Assembly (NCBI GenBank): GCA_028703535.1
Contig: JAQVMQ010000001.1
Span: forward strand, 8,818 to 72,817
Source: Candidatus Omnitrophota bacterium
Lineage (GTDB): Bacteria > Omnitrophota > Gorgyraeia > Duberdicusellales > 4484-171
Direction: 5' to 3'
DNA: 64,000 bases
Shown: piece by piece, positions 2,413-15,331 of the stretch
How positions within the stretch are numbered: the first letter of the stretch is position 1
Layout: each line of letters opens with the position of its first letter
Translations under genes and position numbers: made by a program
The notes under the pieces: model-generated
Database searches by the model: none
Seen by the model: only the letters and a program-made list of their open reading frames with translations
Told to the model about the DNA's origin: nothing

Positions 2413-3183
2413 ATGAGAAAATGGTATTTTCATAAGTTTATATCGCAAAAAACGGCCATCTTAACCATATTGCTTCTTTTGCCCATTGTGTCAGTTCATC
2501 CACAACCGCCCAAGGATAACGCAATAACAACACTAGATTTGGCTTTTCGTTCTTCAGTAAAAGTTATAGTCGATAATACTCTAAACGTTAAAGGGCCCTC
2601 CGGATTAGTAAGAACACCTGACAATAGATTAGTGAAACTTGATAAAATACGCACGCTTAACTATCGACGTACCGGTGTCGGCGTAATTGCAACAGCATCC
2701 GGGATAATAATAACAAACGCGCATATAGTCAAAGACGGCGGACGAATAAAAATCATCTTCGCTGATAACACCGAAACTACCGCTCAGCCTTTGTGGCTGA
2801 ATGTCCCGGACGATATTGCATTTCTAAAGATTGCTAAGCCTGATAAATTCGTATACATAACCTTTTCCAACTCGAATAATACAAAAACACAGCAAGACAT
2901 TTACACAATAGGCAGTTCTAAATTTATTAAAGGTCAGATGACACGCGGAAAAATAACAGGTATAGGCCGGCAAAAACAAACACCAAAAAATATCGCAATG
3001 ATACAAACTTCTATTTCGATATATAAAGGCGACAGCGGCTCGCCGTTATTCGATAAAAAAGGAGAATTTATAGGTATGCTAAGCGCCAAACAGACCAACA
3101 GCCCTTATTATAGCATAGCCATACCTGCAAATATAATCGCACAACATCTTTTAAATTATATGAAATCAGAAAAGAAGCTATAA
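2413..3183 (+). CDS. Secreted trypsin-like (S1) serine protease without PDZ domain
   Basis: N-terminal signal/TM segment. Catalytic triad context TNAHIV (His), DDIAFLKI (Asp), GDSGSPLFD (Ser). Confidence 0.8.
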   Translation: MRKWYFHKFISQKTAILTILLLLPIVSVHPQPPKDNAITTLDLAFRSSVKVIVDNTLNVKGPSGLVRTPDNRLVKLDKIRTLNYRRTGVGVIATASGIIITNAHIVKDGGRIKIIFADNTETTAQPLWLNVPDDIAFLKIAKPDKFVYITFSNSNNTKTQQDIYTIGSSKFIKGQMTRGKITGIGRQKQTPKNIAMIQTSISIYKGDSGSPLFDKKGEFIGMLSAKQTNSPYYSIAIPANIIAQHLLNYMKSEKKL

Positions 3184-3208
3184 GTCGTAAGCTCTAAGCT
3201 TTACGCCT
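3181..3208. repeat. Four tandem degenerate heptamers TAAGTCG-TAAGCTC-TAAGCTT-TACGCCT spanning the stop codons of two convergent genes
   Basis: Read directly. A bulged hairpin cgtaaGCtctaaGCTTtacg is also possible here. Member of the 7-nt-periodic intergenic family described in findings. Confidence 0.45.
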
Positions 3209-3628
3209 ACTTAAAAAGTCATTTATTTTATAGGTAGATACTTGAGCAAACCTTGCAACCTTATATTGTTTTTCATCTTCGGTAATCAATATAGCAGAAT
3301 GTTTTTTAGCAATTAAAATATAAATTAAATCGCCAGCTTTTATATATGGAACATTTAAATCCATATATTCTTTGATAAAATTTTTATCAATATAAACCAC
3401 TTTTGGAGATAGCAAACAAAACTTGTTCAATATATCATCAGTTTTAAAATTATTATTGAGTCTCTCGTTTTCAATTGCAGTTTTAAGCTCTAACACAGCA
3501 TATATTGGTATTGTTATATTAATTTTATTTGATTTAATATACTGCTCTAACCTAAAAGCCAACTCATGGCGTTTTCTAGAAACAATAAACATATCTGTTA
3601 GGACAGATGCGTCAAGGACTACTTCCAT
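3194..3628 (-). CDS. PIN-domain protein (VapC-like predicted RNase); no cognate antitoxin ORF seen
   Basis: N-terminal VVLDASVL (acidic Asp), LELKTA Glu, C-terminal ILITEDE; size typical of PIN. Lies 42 nt downstream of, and co-directional with, the EF-G fusion gene. Confidence 0.7.
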   Translation of the reverse strand: MEVVLDASVLTDMFIVSRKRHELAFRLEQYIKSNKINITIPIYAVLELKTAIENERLNNNFKTDDILNKFCLLSPKVVYIDKNFIKEYMDLNVPYIKAGDLIYILIAKKHSAILITEDEKQYKVARFAQVSTYKINDFLSRRKA

Positions 3629-3643
3629 TCTTTGTCTTTCACA

Positions 3644-3671
3644 CTTATAGCTTAAAACTTATAGCTAAGAT
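3644..3671. repeat. 14-nt direct repeat x2 (cttatagcttaaaa / cttatagctaagat), i.e. heptamer-phased TAGCTTA-AAACTTA-TAGCTAA, between the EF-G-fusion stop and the PIN start
   Basis: Read directly; 11 of 14 positions identical between the two units. Confidence 0.5.
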
Positions 3672-6600
3672 TATTTCTCTTCACTTTTACGTTTCTTGAC
3701 TTCTTCAACTATTTTAGCTGTCGCCTCACTAGGCACCGGCTCATACCTTGAAAACTTCAAAGAAAAAGTTGCTCTACCGCTACTCAACGATCTAAAAGTC
3801 TGAGCATACCCGAACATCTCTGAAAGCGGCGCTTCAGCTTTTATCTCTTTCTGCGAGCCGTTGACATCCATACTAAGGATTTTCCCTCGTTTGGAACATA
3901 TATATCCAACAATATTGCTTACATATTCCTCAGGAGTAAGAACGCTGATCTCCATATACGGTTCAAGCAATATCGGCCCGGCATCCATAAACGTATTTTT
4001 AAAACATGTACGAGCCGCGACTTTAAACGCCAACTCAGACGAATCAACTTCATGATATGAACCGTCAAGCAATGTAGCCTTCACATCTACAACAGGATAT
4101 CCTGCCAATATACCGCCTTTCATTGCTTCAATAAAGCCTTTCTCCACTGCCGGTATATATGTCTGCGGGATAGCCCCGCCTTTTATTTTATTCTCAAAAA
4201 CAAAACCGGCACTCCGATCCAACGGTTCAATTTTCATTACAACATGTCCGTACTGCCCACGTCCGCCTGTCTGCTTAACATGTTTATATTCGCCTTCTTT
4301 AGATAAACTGAGCGTTTCTTTATAGGATACTTTCGGAGGGCTGACATCTGCATTAACTTTGAACTCCGTTTTTATCCTGTCTACAATGATCTCAAGATGC
4401 AGCTCACCCATCCCTGACAATATAATCTCGTTTGTCTCCTGATCTGTTTCAACAGTAAAGGTCGGATCTTCTTCAACTAATTTCATTATCGCTTTATTAA
4501 GTTTATCCTGATCCTGCCGGCTTCTCGGTGTAACACTTATAGATACGACAGGGACAGGAAACTCTATTGTCTCAAGAATAACCGGCCGATTAACCGAACA
4601 TAAAGTATCTCCCGTAGTCGTATTGTTTAATCCAACAGCTGCAGCAATATCTCCGGCAGCAATAACATTAATATTTTCTTTCTGATTTGCATGCATCTGT
4701 AAAATACGACCTATACGCTCTTTCTTGCCTTTCGTAGCGTTAAAGACATAGGACCCTGCCTGCAAACATCCCGAATAAACCCGGAAATAAATCAATTTGC
4801 CCACATGCGGATCGGCTTGGACCTTAAATGCTAAGGCAGAAAAGGGTTCATTCGTAGCCGCTGATATAACTATCTTTTTTTCATGATCAGCCGGATCATC
4901 CGCCTCAATAGGCGGCAAATCAATAGGTGACGGTAGAAAATCTTTAACAGCATCTAACAAAGTCTGCACGCCTTTATTTTTTAAAGCTGAGCCACACAAT
5001 ATCGGTACAAGTTTATTGGTAACAGTTCCTTTACGCAATGCTTTACGAACCTCATCTTTCGTAACAGACTCCGGCCCTTTAAGATATTTCTCCATAAGAC
5101 CTTCATCAACCTCTAGAGCCTTATCTATCAGCTTTTGATGATACTCTTTTACTTTTTCAGCTATATCAGACGGAATATCTATTTCTTCAATTTCCTTACC
5201 AAGATCATCTTTATACATATACGCTTTGCCTTCTATCAAATCAACAAAGCCTTTAAATTCGCTCTCAGCACCTATCGGTAACTGAATAACCGCGACATTA
5301 GCTTCAAGCCTATTCTCAATACTGTTGACAACCTTAAAAAAATCAGCACCCATCCTATCCATTTTATTAATAAAGGCAATCTTAGGTACATGATATTTAT
5401 CCGACTGACGCCAAACAGTTTCAGATTGTGCCTCAACGCCACCCACCGCACAAAAAACAACAACCGCGCCGTCCAAAACCCGCAAAGAACGTTCTACCTC
5501 AGCGGTAAAATCAACGTGCCCCGGTGTATCAATGATATTTATACGTGTATCTTTCCAAAAACAGGTAGTAGCCGCGGACGTAATAGTAATACCTCGTTCT
5601 TGTTCCTGCTTCATCCAATCCATCTGCGCAGCACCATCATGAACTTCTCCGATCTTATGCGACTTCCCTGTATAAAATAATATACGTTCGCTTATTGTTG
5701 TTTTTCCTGAATCTATATGCGCAATTATCCCGATATTGCGTAGTTTTTCAAAATCAACAGAAATATCAAGGTCTTCATCATCATCCGCGTGTGCATTTAT
5801 AACCGCATTATCCAAAGAAACGTCATCCCGAGATTCACTAACTTTACCATTATTTGTCTCCGGCACAATTTCTATAACTTTATCCGGGGAGATTGCAACA
5901 TCGTCCGATAAGACATCATCCGATAAGACCTCATCCTCAACAGACAGACCATGTTCAGAAACATTCTCATCGGATAACATCTCTGCTTCAGTATCGCTAA
6001 TCGATTGAGTATCTTCATCCGTATCCGTAATAATTTCTTTTTCAATTGGTCCAATAACTCTTGAGCTCTTAAGTTCATCAATAGTTTTTTTTAATTCATC
6101 AACCAAGCTATCTCTATGCTCAAGCTGTTTACCTCGATAATCTAAATCGCCTTTGAGTATCTCAAACTCCTCTTCAAGTGCGTGATATTCATCTCTTGAT
6201 ACCCAGTCGCTCTGTTCCATTTTACGTAACGCGTCATTAAGCTTACTTTTAACTGCTTGTTCACTTTTTAATACCGTATCAAGCCTATCTGTCAAAATAC
6301 GTATTTCTTTATCTTTTTCAAAAGACTTATTGGTAAGATCGGAAATGTCACTCTGTAAATCAGAATTTTCACTTTTTATTTTTATGTTTTTAGAAAATTC
6401 TCTCTCAAGTTCAATATCTTTGTCAATAATACGTTGTTTGAGCTCAGCAAGCTGGTTATACAATTTTTCAACCTGTTTCTTCTCTTTCTCTTCCCACTCT
6501 TTCTCCTTAGATATTGCAGTTTCAAGTTCAGAGTTTTTCTTAGACAATAAGGCTATCTTCTTTGTTTTTTCATCTATATCTTTATCCGCCAGCTCAAGTT

Positions 6601-6781
6601 TTGCGTTAAGTCCCGATAACTGTTCTTTCAACTTTTCGCCATGTTCTCTTAAATTTTGAACAGTTTGTTTAAGATTTTCTTTGTCAACTTTCTGTTTTCG
6701 TTTTTTAGGGTTGGGTTGATTAACCGCATAAAGACTCAAGCCCACACCGGCAAGCACCAATACTGCTAAAATAAATTCCAT
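3671..6781 (-). CDS. TM-anchor + coiled-coil + acidic linker fused to a complete EF-G (1036 aa)
   Basis: Single uninterrupted ORF; ATG at 6779-6781 with GGGGAGAG SD. aa 3-19 hydrophobic helix then KKRKQK; aa ~30-240 K/E/L heptad-rich; aa ~245-345 D/E/S-rich. From aa ~346: [53 protein letters not shown], i.e. a full five-domain EF-G. Confidence 0.9.
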
Positions 6782-6820
6782 TTGCTCTCCCCGAAAGAAT
6801 TTTGTAAGTTATAAGTATTT

Positions 6821-6850
6821 ATAATAACATATAACTCGCACCGATTTCAA
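6821..6850 (-). promoter_or_regulatory. Candidate sigma70-type promoter for the EF-G fusion gene (TTGAAA-N18-TATTAT)
   Basis: Reverse complement of tttcaa (6845-6850) and ataata (6821-6826); about 40 nt upstream of the ATG. Sequence match only. Confidence 0.3.
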
Positions 6851-7037
6851 CTCAATTTTGAAATAGTGCTCCGCCAGTAAATAGTCGATAGATACCTTGT
6901 CGTGAAGATATTGAAAAAATTTATAATTATTGCTTATTTGTTAAAGACCCTTGACTTTTCAAACGACAAAAAACTATCTATAAATAAAAAGTTTAATAAA
7001 CCAATCTCGCATTATACATTTCCAGCGACACTCCTAA

Positions 7038-7070
7038 CTTTACATTTCGAGCAACACTCGAAATGTAAAG
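7038..7070. other. Perfect 14-bp inverted repeat (CTTTACATTTCGAG caaca CTCGAAATGTAAAG)
   Basis: Arms 7038-7051 and 7057-7070, 5-nt spacer. No flanking U/T tract on either strand, so not a canonical terminator. Confidence 0.6.
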
Positions 7071-7354
7071 AAGATATCCTAAACCAAAGAAAGTGTGAAT
7101 TATGCAAAACCTAAAACTTAACATTTTCGCGTGATAAAAGATTAACATCTTGACTTAGTAATAACACTACTTAACATGTAGTTCCACAGAATCTTTAGCA
7201 TTATATCTTTACGTTCTAATATAAACAGTCCGTGCAGCTCCTTACAAACCTATATGTATATAGTCATATTTGCCTACTGGAGATATACAATACCTATTAA
7301 TACATCACAACCACTGTCTCCCTTTTTTCCACACTTTAACAGCTCTTATTTCAA

Positions 7355-7392
7355 GTGTCTGCCAGTCTGCAGGCAATAGCACTGGCGGACAC
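7355..7392. other. 12-bp stem hairpin / inverted repeat (GTGTCTGCCAGT...ACTGGCGGACAC) with 14-nt loop
   Basis: Arms 7355-7366 and 7381-7392. The single T:G position is a wobble only if transcribed from the plus strand. Locally GC-rich within an AT-rich 760-nt non-coding region. Confidence 0.5.
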
Positions 7393-7473
7393 AGTAAGCC
7401 GACAACGCTAACGGCTCCAACAACATTAATATAAACTATCGGGTTAGTCCCCTAAGTAATACACACGGGAAAC

Positions 7474-7494
7474 GGCTAAAAACTAAAGACTAAT
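7474..7494. repeat. Three tandem heptamers GGCTAAA-AACTAAA-GACTAAT
   Basis: Read directly. A related pair CGCTAAC-GGCTCCA lies at 7406-7419. Confidence 0.5.
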
Positions 7495-7542
7495 TTCCCT
7501 TGACCTTTATACAACAATAAGTAAAATAATATTACTTTCTTT

Positions 7543-10140
7543 ATGTATAAACGAATAATTTCAATCTTTAGCATAGGAGTTATTATCATGCAAACACAAG
7601 GCCTTTGCGCGTTCAATCCTCATATCACAAAACAAAAACTTAAAAACGGGATGGTCTGCCTTATTGATGAACGCCCCAAAACCAAGATGTTTGCCGTAAA
7701 TATACGAATAAACGCCGGAAGTTCAACGGAAGATATGTTCCTGGGCACAGGCATATCTCACCTTGCAGAGCATATGGCCTTTAAAGCAACCCGCAATTAT
7801 CCCGTGGGCGAAATAGAAAAAAAAATAAAATCATTCGGTGGAACTACGAATGCCTCTACATCTTATGATTCAACATCCTTCTATATTTTGGCACCATCAG
7901 AACATTTCTCTGAAATAATTGAAATACTGAAAGAAATGATCTTTTTCCCCATAGCAAACGACAAAGAGTTTGAAGATGAAAAAAGCGTTATATTGAAAGA
8001 ATTGATAATGTATAACGACCGGCCTGAATCTAAAATATCGGAACTGCTTTTTGATACCGCATATATCGCACACCCTTACAAACATCCGATTATCGGACAT
8101 GAAGAAAATTTCAAATTATTAACCTATAAAAACTTGTCTGATTACCGTGATAAATATTATGTACCCAACAATATGGTACTTTCTATAGTTGGCGACATAA
8201 AAACACAGCCTGCCTTAGATATACTTGAAAACGTTTTTTCGGAAATAAAAACCAATAAATACCCAACCACAATACTGCAAAACGAGCCAGAACAGATAAT
8301 AAATCGTGCGGCATCTCAAACCGACGAGATATCAGTAGCGTATATAGCTTACGGATACCCCAGTGTCCCGTTGTTAGATAAAGATCTGTTCGCGCTGGAT
8401 ATTTTAGCCTCAATCCTTGGCCGTGGGGACGGATCAAGGCTAAATAAAAAAATAGTAAAAGAAAAACAACTGGCAAGAACTGTCTCGGCTTCAAATTACA
8501 CGCCGAAATCAAAAGGTCTATTTGTTATCGAAACAATTGCCGACCCGGAAAATATTGATACAGTGAACGAACTTATAAAAAACGAGATCGAAACAATAAA
8601 AACAAAGCCTGTCTCAACTGATGAACTTCAAAAAGCCAAAGCATTACTGATAAGTGATAATATATTTGACCAGGAAGATCTGGTCAATGTTGCCGCGACC
8701 CTTACGCGTGATGAGATGTTTACCGGCGATTTTCTTTTTAGCGAAAAATACATAGAAAAAATAAATGAGGTAACTCCTGATGAGATAGCTGACGCCGCAA
8801 AAAAATATTTAAACAACAAAAACGAAAATTACGTGACTATTCTCCCTAAAAACTTTACACAGCCCGAACAAACAAAACCTTACGATTTCATACTCCCTAA
8901 CTCCGAAACTACCAAACGGACAAAACTTAAAAATGGGCTAACCATATTAGCTGCTAAAAACAATCAAACAGAAACAGCAGTAATCTCGCTCGCGGTAGCT
9001 GCAGGCTTACGCGCAGAAAACGAAAAAAATAACGGTATATCACAAATAACTTCGCAGATGCTCCTTAAAGGCACAACTACCCGTTCCGAATCAGAAATAA
9101 AAGAAGCCTTCGAACAACGCGGCGGGCATATACACTCATTAAGCGGCAAAAATACAATTCTTATCACAGCCCAAATCTTAAAAAAAGACATCCCTTTTGC
9201 TCTGGAAATTTTAGCCGATATAATAAAAAATTCTAATTTCCCGGAAAATGAATTCGAAAAAGTTAAACAACTGGCATTATACGACATTAAACTGGAAGAT
9301 GACGATATCTTTTTAACTGCTAAAAAAGCTTTGCGCAAAGAACTTTTCATTGAACCGCCCTATTCTATGAGTGAAAGCGGTACTAAAGATAGTATAAACT
9401 CCATTACACTAGACAACGTAAAAGAATTCTTTTCAAAATACGTTATAACAGGAACCATGAGTCTTTCTATATGCGGAGATATCGACTACGCAGAAATATT
9501 CCCTCTTATTGAACTAAACTTCTCCGATATAGAGAAAAAAAACAACGAGATTCTTTCTGAGATCAAAGTTCCTGCCGTTACTGGCAGCAAAACAGTAAAC
9601 ATACCGATGCAACGTGACGAAAACATAATTATACTGGGTTTTAATGGAATACCTTTCAAAAATCCCGAACGTTTTTCTTTCGAAATATTGAGTTCAATCC
9701 TGTCAAGTATGGGTGGACGGCTATTCCATGAGATACGGAATAATCTAGGCCTATCATATACACAAGGTTTTTTTTCAAGTCCTGAATATGATACCGGGAG
9801 TTTTGGATTTTTTGTCGCTACTTCGCCTCAAAATACCCAAAAAGTTATTAATGCTTTGAAAAAAGAAATCCAGAAACTAATAGATACCGGTATATCTCAA
9901 AAAGAACTTGACGATGCAAAGACTTCGCTTATTACCGGTAACAGGACATCCCTTTTACACAACAAAAACGTATCGTCCTCAATGGCAATAAACGAAACTC
10001 TGGAAATGGGGTACACCGAACTGTTTGAATATGAAAATAACATAAAAAATATCAAATTGTCCGACATAAATAAAATAATTGATAAATATCTGACGCAGGA
10101 ATATGTGACATTAATAGTAGGCCCCGAAAACAAAAAGTAA
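7543..10140 (+). CDS. M16 (pitrilysin) family zinc peptidase, tandem two-module form (865 aa)
   Basis: Signal-like N-terminus. Inverted zinc motif HLAEH (HxxEH) in the first module; the second homologous module lacks it, as is usual for M16B-like halves. Confidence 0.85.
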   Translation: MYKRIISIFSIGVIIMQTQGLCAFNPHITKQKLKNGMVCLIDERPKTKMFAVNIRINAGSSTEDMFLGTGISHLAEHMAFKATRNYPVGEIEKKIKSFGGTTNASTSYDSTSFYILAPSEHFSEIIEILKEMIFFPIANDKEFEDEKSVILKELIMYNDRPESKISELLFDTAYIAHPYKHPIIGHEENFKLLTYKNLSDYRDKYYVPNNMVLSIVGDIKTQPALDILENVFSEIKTNKYPTTILQNEPEQIINRAASQTDEISVAYIAYGYPSVPLLDKDLFALDILASILGRGDGSRLNKKIVKEKQLARTVSASNYTPKSKGLFVIETIADPENIDTVNELIKNEIETIKTKPVSTDELQKAKALLISDNIFDQEDLVNVAATLTRDEMFTGDFLFSEKYIEKINEVTPDEIADAAKKYLNNKNENYVTILPKNFTQPEQTKPYDFILPNSETTKRTKLKNGLTILAAKNNQTETAVISLAVAAGLRAENEKNNGISQITSQMLLKGTTTRSESEIKEAFEQRGGHIHSLSGKNTILITAQILKKDIPFALEILADIIKNSNFPENEFEKVKQLALYDIKLEDDDIFLTAKKALRKELFIEPPYSMSESGTKDSINSITLDNVKEFFSKYVITGTMSLSICGDIDYAEIFPLIELNFSDIEKKNNEILSEIKVPAVTGSKTVNIPMQRDENIIILGFNGIPFKNPERFSFEILSSILSSMGGRLFHEIRNNLGLSYTQGFFSSPEYDTGSFGFFVATSPQNTQKVINALKKEIQKLIDTGISQKELDDAKTSLITGNRTSLLHNKNVSSSMAINETLEMGYTELFEYENNIKNIKLSDINKIIDKYLTQEYVTLIVGPENKK

Positions 10141-14536: not shown

Positions 14537-15331
14537 ATGACACTCTATATACTCATATTTCTTGGTATAATTTTTTTCTCCATCGGTATAATCCTGGTAC
14601 TAAAAAACGTATTCCTAGTTTCGCACTATAAGAATCAAGCTCTTTCACTTAAAAAAAAATATGATGAGACATTACATGAAATAAACGATCAACAAACACG
14701 AATAAAAAATGACTTCAAAGATTCTAATAAAAAAATAGCCGAGCTTTCAAAAAAACTCCAGGAAACAACTGCCGAAAAAGACGTTCAGATCTCAAAATTA
14801 GAGAATGAATTAGCAAAAAAACAAACAACAAGTACAGACAACGCTCCGGCCCACAATGACCATGAAATAAAGACCTTACGCGAGACATTATCAGAAAAGT
14901 ATGAAATAATAAAACAACTTAATCAAGAAATCTTATCATTTAAAAAAAATATGTCGGAAAGCCCGAAAAACTCAGATAATGCCAACACTTTAAAAAACGA
15001 ATTAACTTTTTCTCATGAAGAAGTTAAAAAACTAAAAATACAAATTATTGATCTGGAGACTAAATTAAGCGCAACCGAACAAGCATTATCCTTCGCCAAC
15101 AACCAGTTAAAATGTTTTTCTGAAAACGAGCCCGATAATACCGAAGATATCCTGAAAAGTAAACCGATAATAATGTCCGCGCCTGCCTCTACGGAAAAAA
15201 CCATACCCGCTGAAAATCTAAACGGTCCTACGCCTTCCGCAGGCCAAACGGATAAAGACAACGAGAAAAAATCTTTGCTATCGATATTAGATAACGAAAA
15301 AAAGAAAGAAAAAGAAGAAAATGAAAAATAA
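14537..15331 (+). CDS. Membrane-anchored coiled-coil protein with low-complexity tail (264 aa)
   Basis: N-terminal TM helix LYILIFLGIIFFSIGIILVL, then K/E/Q/L-rich heptad sequence and a K/E-rich C-terminus. No enzymatic motif recognised. Confidence 0.6.
   Translation: MTLYILIFLGIIFFSIGIILVLKNVFLVSHYKNQALSLKKKYDETLHEINDQQTRIKNDFKDSNKKIAELSKKLQETTAEKDVQISKLENELAKKQTTSTDNAPAHNDHEIKTLRETLSEKYEIIKQLNQEILSFKKNMSESPKNSDNANTLKNELTFSHEEVKKLKIQIIDLETKLSATEQALSFANNQLKCFSENEPDNTEDILKSKPIIMSAPASTEKTIPAENLNGPTPSAGQTDKDNEKKSLLSILDNEKKKEKEENEK

Follow-up and report, generated by a model that had tools for sequence, protein, structure and literature searches.

Background

To our knowledge, elongation factor G (EF-G) has been treated as a freely diffusing cytoplasmic factor, and the EF-Gs described are soluble. 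RNase Y and EzrA of Firmicutes have a single-pass anchor at the N-terminus and, after it, a long cytoplasmic coiled coil, and in RNase Y an RNA-directed enzymatic domain follows the coiled coil. FtsY, the receptor GTPase of the signal recognition particle (SRP), is membrane-associated, possesses an acidic N-terminal A domain, and is anchored by a transmembrane (TM) segment in some bacteria; YqjD, ElaB and YgaM of E. coli are tail-anchored ribosome-binding proteins, and LepA (EF4) is reported to be stored at the membrane. The primary EF-G copy, EFG I, typically lies in the str operon beside rpsG and tuf (PMC3150367), and in organisms with divided EF-G labour extra copies occur alongside another EF-G (PMC3150367, PMC4342817). 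The stretch analysed here, referred to as the window, comprises 64,000 nucleotides of contig JAQVMQ010000001.1 from a Candidatus Omnitrophota bacterium (GCA_028703535.1) and carried three EF-G genes, namely a soluble sister, a long form with a predicted membrane anchor, and a copy beside EF-Tu. The long form, in which a complete EF-G is preceded in frame by the anchor, a coiled-coil stalk and an acidic linker, is the subject of this report.

An earlier note on the window, made from the letters alone, had drawn attention to this gene and stated that its author was aware of no membrane-tethered EF-G. In agreement with that statement, a full-text search combining Omnitrophota or Omnitrophica with EF-G, and one for membrane-anchored or transmembrane EF-G, returned no description within an incomplete coverage of the literature; the words membrane and transmembrane were absent from the main text of surveys of EF-G and translational GTPases, and Omnitrophota genome papers contained no membrane-anchored form. 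What is new, as judged from the sequences, is a covalently membrane-anchored, stalk-mounted EF-G kept under selection across Omnitrophota; its architecture is firmly established, and its function is one that we infer.

The long EF-G is encoded by a single conserved gene

The gene was one unbroken open reading frame (ORF) of 1036 codons, beginning with an ATG preceded by a Shine-Dalgarno (SD)-like GGAG (Table 1), and encoded a protein of 115.8 kDa by calculation, instead of the approximately 118 kDa given in the earlier note. Four parts were distinguished, a hydrophobic anchor, a coiled coil, an acidic linker and the EF-G, and a Pfam scan gave no match within the first 345 residues. The reading frame with its start, the hydrophobic helix followed by KKRKQK, the heptad-rich region, the acidic linker and the full five-domain EF-G had all been pointed out in that note, and each was recovered by the analyses given below; the limits of a tandem duplication in the linker had to be moved, from 5901-5930 to 5898-5936. 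The fusion point was likewise placed correctly, residue 5 of the short paralog being aligned with residue 342 of the long protein.

Homologs were sought among 5.8 billion proteins, and the figures given are those of the best 120 matches. About 100 of these were 960 to 1180 amino acids (aa) long, and nearly all of the long ones possessed a hydrophobic segment at residues 1-25 and a P-loop at position ~320-400. When GTDB representatives, one genome for each species, were scanned with the full long protein as query, 78 loci were obtained, 59 of which had the stalk profile and the EF-G core in one ORF. The records of fused loci were mostly labelled Candidatus Omnitrophota, with some metagenome-assembled genomes (MAGs) labelled Planctomycetia, Planctomycetales or Deltaproteobacteria, labels that could not be verified. 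Both complete Omnitrophota chromosomes among the loci (CP070807.1 and CP070797.1) carried the fused ORF, and the same architecture was found in independent assemblies from JGI, ENA, NCBI and Logan.

Ratios of nonsynonymous to synonymous substitution (dN/dS) were obtained from five close species pairs whose synonymous divergence was unsaturated. The values were 0.10-0.21 for the anchor and coil, 0.28-0.47 for the linker, and 0.03-0.06 for the EF-G. The values for the first two parts indicate that the extension is read in this frame and is under selection. These findings, a single ORF across many species with an extension under purifying selection, bear out the view of the earlier note that the gene is a genuine fusion translated as one unit. 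Nor were the two parts always separate genes in related genomes, separate or EF-G-less versions being found in one sublineage.

The annotation of several of these loci deserves mention. NCBI products of 837, 797, 702 and 718 aa correspond to ORFs of 1055, 1051, 1045 and 1151 aa that begin with a hydrophobic helix, at L006/L008 (CP070807.1), L015 (CP070797.1), L007 and L021. On CP070807.1 translation is annotated to begin within the coiled coil, and the ORF extends 218 codons further up to a Met that bears the TM segment; the 702-aa annotation belongs to the contig of L007. Homology-guided start calling thus trims the extension in several NCBI records and makes the architecture invisible in those protein entries. 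At one further locus (L083, 7886-11014) the long EF-G was broken in the G domain, a 413-aa ORF with the stalk and P-loop being followed by a 616-aa ORF; this interruption is either a pseudogene or an assembly error.

Membrane anchor

The anchor was judged by simple hydropathy together with AlphaFold2. Residues 1-25 were uncharged and hydrophobic (Kyte-Doolittle 19-residue mean 2.2) and were followed by KKRKQK; AlphaFold2 predicted a helix at residues 2-20. An uncharged run of 21-36 residues (median 24) starting from residue ~1 was present in 56 of 60 orthologs, with practically no charged residue ahead of it, and across the family the hydrophobicity was kept while the sequence was not conserved. 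The 20 residues after the anchor contained 8 K/R versus 2 D/E in the window protein, the family means being 5.25 versus 3.93. The features of a single-pass N-terminal anchor, that is, at least ~20 uncharged hydrophobic residues, helicity and positive charge on the inner side, were therefore all present in the long EF-G. The pattern does not fit a cleaved signal peptide, because there is no positive n-region. The pattern points to a signal anchor with the N-terminus out and the C-terminus in, an orientation that would leave the bulk of the protein in the cytoplasm.

Coiled-coil stalk

Residues 34-239, about 205 in number, formed a coiled coil rich in K, E, L and Q. The best period of the family hydrophobicity profile was exactly 3.50 residues; over residues 34-189 it held in one unbroken register with z = 27 against shuffles, none of 2000 shuffles reaching it, and in the second helix (residues 196-241) heptad periodicity had z = 8. 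The a positions were occupied by L, I, V or N and the d positions mostly by L, and stalk lengths differed between orthologs in 7-residue blocks. Sustained heptads, hydrophobic a and d positions, and phase-preserving insertions and deletions, as expected for a coiled coil, were thus all found.

AlphaFold2, applied to the monomer, predicted helices at 34-189 and 196-241 with a break at the S-x-W-V motif; the predicted local distance difference test (pLDDT) score was >90 over residues ~50-170, as seen in the model of the stalk module alone, and 64-89 elsewhere. The long helix would measure ~23 nm at 0.1485 nm per residue. The distance of the SxWV motif from the N-terminus was nearly constant (median 196, range 178-242). 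Compared with PDB sequences, the family profile best matched tropomyosin, the myosin rod and GCN4, with weak E-values. The stalk probably pairs with another chain, likely as a parallel dimer, because a hydrophobic seam of 156 residues cannot be buried within one chain; the parallel arrangement is suggested by the composition of the a and d positions and by the tropomyosin- and myosin-like profile matches.

A 21-nt tandem duplication was located at 6333-6373 (minus strand, residues 137-150; 1.9 copies, 80% matches). It spans one heptad and matches the 7-residue insertions and deletions between orthologs.

Acidic linker

Residues 240-341 contained 31% D+E, 5% K+R and 13% S, with an isoelectric point of 4.05. 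AlphaFold2 predicted the region to be disordered (pLDDT about 27), with no confident contacts with the head. Tandem Repeats Finder reported 2.6 copies of the 15-nt repeat with 91% matches. Among family members, linkers ranged from 44 to 217 aa (median 106) and had a median net charge of -15, a composition of 22% E, 13% P, 11% A and 9% K, and no conserved sequence.

The EF-G head

All five EF-G domains of the head were full length in Pfam, and AlphaFold2 gave a pLDDT of about 90 for residues 343-1036. The NCBIfam equivalog TIGR00484 was matched with 1037.6 bits (cutoff 659.4), positions 4-690 of the 691 in the model falling on residues 341-1029. Among PDB sequences, T. thermophilus EF-G (1DAR) was matched end to end with 874 bits, versus 566 for mitochondrial EF-G1, 453 for mitochondrial EF-G2/RRF2, 412 for EF-G2, and at most about 411 for Tet proteins. 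Scores with the models of specialised subfamilies stayed below their cutoffs (NF009377 EF-G2, 512 versus 890; NF058620, 518 versus 1000; tet_protect, 405 versus 775), and the KDG insertion specific to spdEFG1 was absent from switch I. In the 60 long orthologs, the P-loop and DTPGHVDF with the catalytic His were retained in every case and NKMD in 59; the domain IV loop motifs were kept, loop I GGRGQYGH being present in 50 and the window protein possessing GSYHEVDSS. The long forms shared a mean identity of 56% with E. coli FusA. Between the long and soluble forms a single diagnostic column was observed (K978 versus Q, in domain V), with no diagnostic insertions or deletions. By these scores and motifs the head is a canonical member of the EF-G family and not of the EF-G2, spdEFG, mitochondrial or Tet type; it would be expected to act as an ordinary EF-G, that is, as a GTPase, translocase and recycler dependent on the ribosome recycling factor (RRF).

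The other EF-G copies

The short paralog at the start of the window shared 70.5% identity with the long protein over 261 aa; elsewhere, full-length soluble sisters have 697-711 aa. The copy beside EF-Tu shared 49% identity with the long EF-G. Over domains III-V, the long and short forms were 54-56% identical to E. coli FusA and 46.5% to the operon copy of the window. About 55 kb separate the long gene from EF-Tu and the ribosomal protein operon, where a different EF-G copy holds the place; by location the long gene is not the primary copy, a matter of copy status and not of family membership.

In a neighbour-joining tree, 22 short paralogs (697-711 aa) formed one pure clade and the long forms were more diverse; long and short forms together excluded E. 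coli FusA and the operon copy, the tree giving no root within the long/short group. Both paralogs co-occurred in at least 9 genomes, the two genes being no more than 10 kb apart in the window and at 5 other loci, and on separate contigs in 3 more MAGs.

The copy beside EF-Tu had GGNGQYGH in place of GGRGQYGH and GSYQDTDSS in place of GSYH(D/E)VDSS, the tip His being replaced by Gln. Among its nearest relatives (68-78% identity), 10 of 13 possessed the canonical His motif, and it was not found in the other 3, which are fragments. The altered tip motifs are thus specific to this genome, and the notion that the operon EF-G is generally degenerate, with the long form as the main translocase, was rejected as a general statement, since the nearest relatives keep the canonical residues.

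Relatives of the stalk and variants of the locus

An exhaustive profile hidden Markov model (HMM) search for stalk relatives, with E-values up to 0.001, yielded 1514 proteins, 71 of them below 1e-30. Apart from pieces of long EF-Gs, these included a coherent set of complete proteins of ~210-236 aa (the ~227-aa family), which aligned with the stalk from the anchor to just past the WVxKxEY motif. A comparison of the two by hhalign gave a probability of 99.9% and E = 5e-35 over 218 columns, and three motifs were shared in the same order and spacing, namely W, E-F/H-S-x-N-x-x-L, and W-V-x-K-x-E-Y; with hmmsearch, the profile of the standalone family matched residues 4-211 of the window protein at E = 2e-30. 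Such members as are named appear as 'hypothetical protein' from Candidatus Omnitrophota, and neither Pfam nor NCBIfam has a model that matches them. The stalk itself gave only sub-threshold, generic coiled-coil or helical-hairpin matches against Pfam, NCBIfam, PDB sequences and Foldseek-PDB, and no family could be named. On the strength of this homology, the extension is a free-standing membrane protein that was recruited, plus a leash.

The 264-aa gene at 14537-15331, which the earlier note had put forward as the type of donor module, did not qualify as a relative; hhalign gave 6.9% over 13 columns, confined to the TM segment, and no match to the module HMM was obtained. Short free-standing genes for an anchor plus coiled coil, less similar to the stalk (173-198 aa, HMM scores 41-76), were observed a few kb from EF-G genes in three genomes (Table 1).

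One sublineage, recognised by a fixed neighbourhood with TrkH, PheS, PheT and MgsA upstream and DUF5981, NifU and RNase Y downstream, carried variants of the arrangement. At L003 (6001-9037) stalk and EF-G are encoded by two genes in different frames, with an overlap of 44 nt; at L002 (5989-7020) and L005 (6001-6885) the stalk and acidic tail stand alone and have cyclophilin and UvrD after them in place of EF-G. Although the fusion predominates, it is thus not obligatory, and the split and EF-G-less variants indicate that the stalk has a function of its own. At L003 the frame changes within the A/G-rich linker, which may reflect a genuine split, a frameshift or an error of sequencing.

Four proteins (P0202, P0213, P0254 and P0186) had a stalk-like anchor and repeated coiled-coil segments ahead of MshEN and PilZ, the latter binding cyclic di-GMP. 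From these, the stalk may serve generally to display various cytoplasmic heads at the membrane, the homology being uncertain. An unrelated coiled-coil protein of 2306 aa scored 4e-23 with the stalk profile; since coiled-coil bias can give scores of E ~1e-20 to 1e-30, the MshEN/PilZ fusions are to be taken as a lead only.

Gene neighbourhood

Around the long EF-G gene are genes for three peptidases (M16, trypsin-like and M48 Ste24/HtpX-like, the last with five N-terminal TM helices) and for a PIN-domain protein. The gene for the PIN-domain protein follows 42 nt downstream, on the strand of the long EF-G gene, and does not recur at other loci. The closest relative, L007, also has M16 and trypsin-like neighbours, and an M48 gene, present within 10 kb at 7 of 61 loci, was the most recurrent specific neighbour. 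A neighbour cluster spanning 18 loci was discarded, as it consisted only of response-regulator and histidine-kinase domains, which are promiscuous.

The divergent intergenic region between the long EF-G and M16 genes (6782-7542) is unusually long, 761 bp, and possesses a perfect 14-bp inverted repeat at 7038-7070 (CTTTACATTTCGAG, 5 nt, CTCGAAATGTAAAG); neither an Rfam match nor a convincing small ORF was found in it. Rfam and tRNA scans of the whole window were negative. The promoter candidate listed for the long EF-G is weak, the number of such sites in the region being equal to chance expectation.

Table 1. Positions of the long EF-G gene, its parts, and other features of the locus (window coordinates unless a locus is named)
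Feature	Position	Strand	Remarks
Long EF-G gene, complete including stop	3671..6781	(-)	1036 aa; P0001, encoded on an independent public contig of 14.5 kb, is 100% identical
GGAG SD-like motif	6787..6790	(-)	5 nt before the ATG at 6781
Sigma-70-like promoter candidate	6821..6850	(-)	TTGAAA, 18 nt, TG-TATTAT; 10/12 matches; ~40 nt upstream of ATG
Predicted membrane anchor, aa 1-25 (helix 2-20)	6707..6781	(-)	Hydropathy, AlphaFold2, family pattern
Basic cluster KKRKQK, aa 26-31	6689..6706	(-)	Directly after anchor; consistent with C-terminus-in topology
Continuous heptad helix, aa 34-190	6212..6682	(-)	~156 residues, ~23 nm
W96 of stalk	6494-6496	(-)	Nearly invariant
Most conserved stalk motif, aa 121-135	6377..6421	(-)	Family consensus KEKELExEFSKNVxL
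S-x-W-V-x-K-x-E-Y-x-x-L motif, aa 191-202	6176..6211	(-)	Predicted kink; S191 invariant in A1, W193 at least 90%
Second heptad helix, aa 196-239	6065..6196	(-)	~7 nm; periodicity, AlphaFold2
Acidic, predicted-disordered linker, aa 240-341	5759..6064	(-)	Composition, AlphaFold2
15-nt tandem repeat in linker	5898..5936	(-)	2.6 copies
EF-G part, aa 342-1036	3674..5758	(-)	Complete, canonical
G domain with G' insert	4928-5746	(-)	Pfam GTP_EFTU 346-618
Domain II	4592-4846	(-)	Pfam EF-G_D2/GTP_EFTU_D2 646-730
Domain III	4340-4561	(-)	Pfam EFG_III 741-814
Domain IV	3980-4336	(-)	Pfam EFG_IV 816-934
Domain V	3722-3970	(-)	Pfam EFG_C 938-1020
Soluble sister paralog ('A' type), N-terminal 265 aa	1..795	(-)	Runs off window start
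Third EF-G, C-terminal ~300 aa	63096..63995	(-)	Adjoins EF-Tu and ribosomal protein operon; runs off window end
Neighbouring M48 Ste24/HtpX-like, trypsin-like, PIN-domain and M16 genes	1067-2305, 2413-3183, 3194-3628, 7543-10140	(-), (+), (-), (+)	
Short anchor plus coiled-coil genes in other genomes	L046 14417-15013; L039 6440-6961; L024 532-1095		

Possible function and alternative explanations

The explanation that we favour, at somewhat better than an even chance, is that the long protein would be a catalytically ordinary EF-G, held as one ~116-kDa chain at the cytoplasmic face of the membrane. The stalk would pair with that of a second copy, most likely as a parallel dimer, and the two EF-G heads would hang on flexible leashes a few tens of nm below the membrane, where they would perform normal GTP-dependent translocation and, with RRF, recycling. 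A part of the cell's EF-G would in this way be permanently concentrated in, and restricted to, the peripheral shell where ribosomes make membrane and secreted proteins, and the soluble paralog and the copy beside EF-Tu would supply untethered EF-G. The earlier note had suggested tethering, rescue or recycling of ribosomes near the membrane as a possible role.

The dimensions of such an arrangement can be estimated. A leash of 106 residues would have a contour length of ~38 nm and a typical end-to-end distance of ~9 nm; together with the 23-nm rod, it would allow the head to range over distances of roughly 0-60 nm from the membrane. Cells of Omnitrophota measure ~0.2 µm across (PMC10066038). 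If the cytoplasmic radius is ~70-80 nm, a head reaching 30-40 nm would cover, by estimate, roughly 75-90% of the cytoplasmic volume, so that in these cells the peripheral shell would be most of the cytoplasm. From this estimated coverage, a fixed stock of EF-G could be kept in the peripheral zone with most ribosomes still reachable.

Several points weigh against a membrane-held, ordinary EF-G. The same reach spans most of a 0.2-µm cell, and 'membrane-proximal' ribosomes may perhaps be no special population; the head bears no sequence sign of specialisation that would explain a benefit of tethering. The fusion is dispensable in the sublineage with the L003 split and the two headless genomes, where the stalk has its own function. 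Neighbourhood clustering over the 61 loci gave no conserved operon partner, and none linking the gene to Sec, YidC or SRP.

An unlikely alternative, though one with several observations on its side, is that the membrane scaffold has the primary function and the EF-G head acts mainly as a hook of high affinity, by which idle or hibernating ribosomes, for instance, are kept at the membrane, or scarce ribosomes are shared out when very small cells divide. Stalks are encoded as a free-standing family and in headless stalk-plus-tail genes, a stalk-like region also precedes the MshEN+PilZ heads, which suggests a general display scaffold, and a near-identical soluble EF-G is available for catalysis. 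However, the catalytic and domain IV tip motifs were kept in essentially all of the 60 orthologs and the head evolved at the dN/dS of 0.03-0.06 given above. Such complete retention is more than a simple hook should require, to be read with the qualifier that stable ribosome binding also needs the GTP conformation; moreover, binding of EF-G to ribosomes is normally transient.

Distinctly doubtful is the proposal that a dimeric, membrane-rooted EF-G actively organises translation in Omnitrophota, by keeping elongating ribosomes in a layer at a fixed ~25-40 nm under the membrane, independent of SRP and nascent chain, as a bacterial kind of 'rough' membrane made with an elongation factor. Under the same proposal, and with the same low likelihood, the long form in any genomes without a soluble sister may be the principal translocase of nanometre-scale cells.

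That the protein is a reservoir stored at the membrane, from which soluble EF-G would be freed by regulated cleavage in the acidic linker in the manner of membrane-tethered regulators, we regard as improbable. The linker is long, disordered and poorly conserved, and the gene is flanked by M16, trypsin-like and M48 peptidase genes, of which L007 shares the first two and 7 of 61 loci the last; but this synteny is weak and confined to some lineages, the family linkers share no conserved cleavage motif, and a soluble paralog is already present in the same genomes.

It is very improbable that the extension is rarely or never translated and that an internal codon starts what is in reality a soluble EF-G. 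Such a start might be read from the shortened NCBI products (702-871 aa) and from an ATG that lies in frame within the linker (aa 268), 74 codons ahead of the EF-G homology. The earlier note had held that no in-frame Met lies near the junction; this ATG exists, but it has no SD-like motif, and neither have the other in-frame start codons in the linker of the window gene (GTG at 306 and TTG at 323). Among 60 genes, an ATG within the last 37 codons before the EF-G was found in 5, none with an SD-like motif; these counts thus give no support to a conserved internal start from which a soluble product could arise, and the note's judgement that a soluble product is unlikely stands. Against the same possibility, the upstream frame was open for ~1 kb in 59 loci, with conserved motifs, heptad phase and the selection already described, and the shortened CP070807.1 product begins within the coiled coil of the longer ORF.

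Finally, an assembly chimera, misjoin or frameshift joining two unrelated genes is effectively refuted and the architecture is real, as it occurs in independent assemblies including both complete chromosomes and the G+C content has no discontinuity across the stalk/EF-G junction, while the short tandem repeat in the linker and the L003 frame change offer nothing specific in favour of a joining artefact.

If the favoured reading of an ordinary EF-G held at the membrane is right, tethering kept in a phylum of ~0.2-µm bacteria implies that the location of elongation and recycling factors can be of importance, at least where cells are extremely small and ribosomes few, and the long EF-G would offer a testable handle on the spatial organisation of bacterial translation. 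The stalk defines a new, uncharacterised family of membrane coiled coils, seemingly a display stalk for different cytoplasmic heads, and the stalked EF-G would surprise specialists in translation.

Comparison with known systems

With canonical FusA (TIGR00484; 1DAR and the E. coli protein), the long EF-G shares the five domains, the G' insert, the G1-G5 motifs and the domain IV loops; it differs in 341 extra N-terminal residues that make up the anchor, stalk and leash. Like EF-G2 (1WDT), spdEFG1/spdEFG2, mitochondrial EF-G1 and EF-G2/RRF2, and Tet(M/O/Q), it is an extra copy, but the long EF-G diverges in its localisation hardware and not in the catalytic body.

Among membrane proteins, RNase Y and EzrA have a similar layout, the cargo of the long EF-G being a translation GTPase attached through a long disordered leash that is acidic. 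Between its stalk and either protein no significant relationship in sequence or fold was detected; a free-standing stalk homolog matched the N-terminal region of RNase Y at E = 5e-4, a sub-threshold score (18.6 bits versus a cutoff of 454). The YqjD family and LepA share with the long EF-G the idea of connecting ribosomes, or a factor of the EF-G family, with the inner membrane; however, members of the YqjD family are not GTPases, LepA has no transmembrane anchor, and neither is a canonical EF-G fused to an anchor. FtsY and the long EF-G are both translation-linked GTPases at the membrane, with an acidic low-complexity region separating the GTPase from the part that binds the membrane, a resemblance for which no homology is claimed; FtsY possesses a SIMIBI NG domain, works at another ribosome site and lacks a coiled-coil stalk, whereas the long EF-G is a translational GTPase mounted on one.

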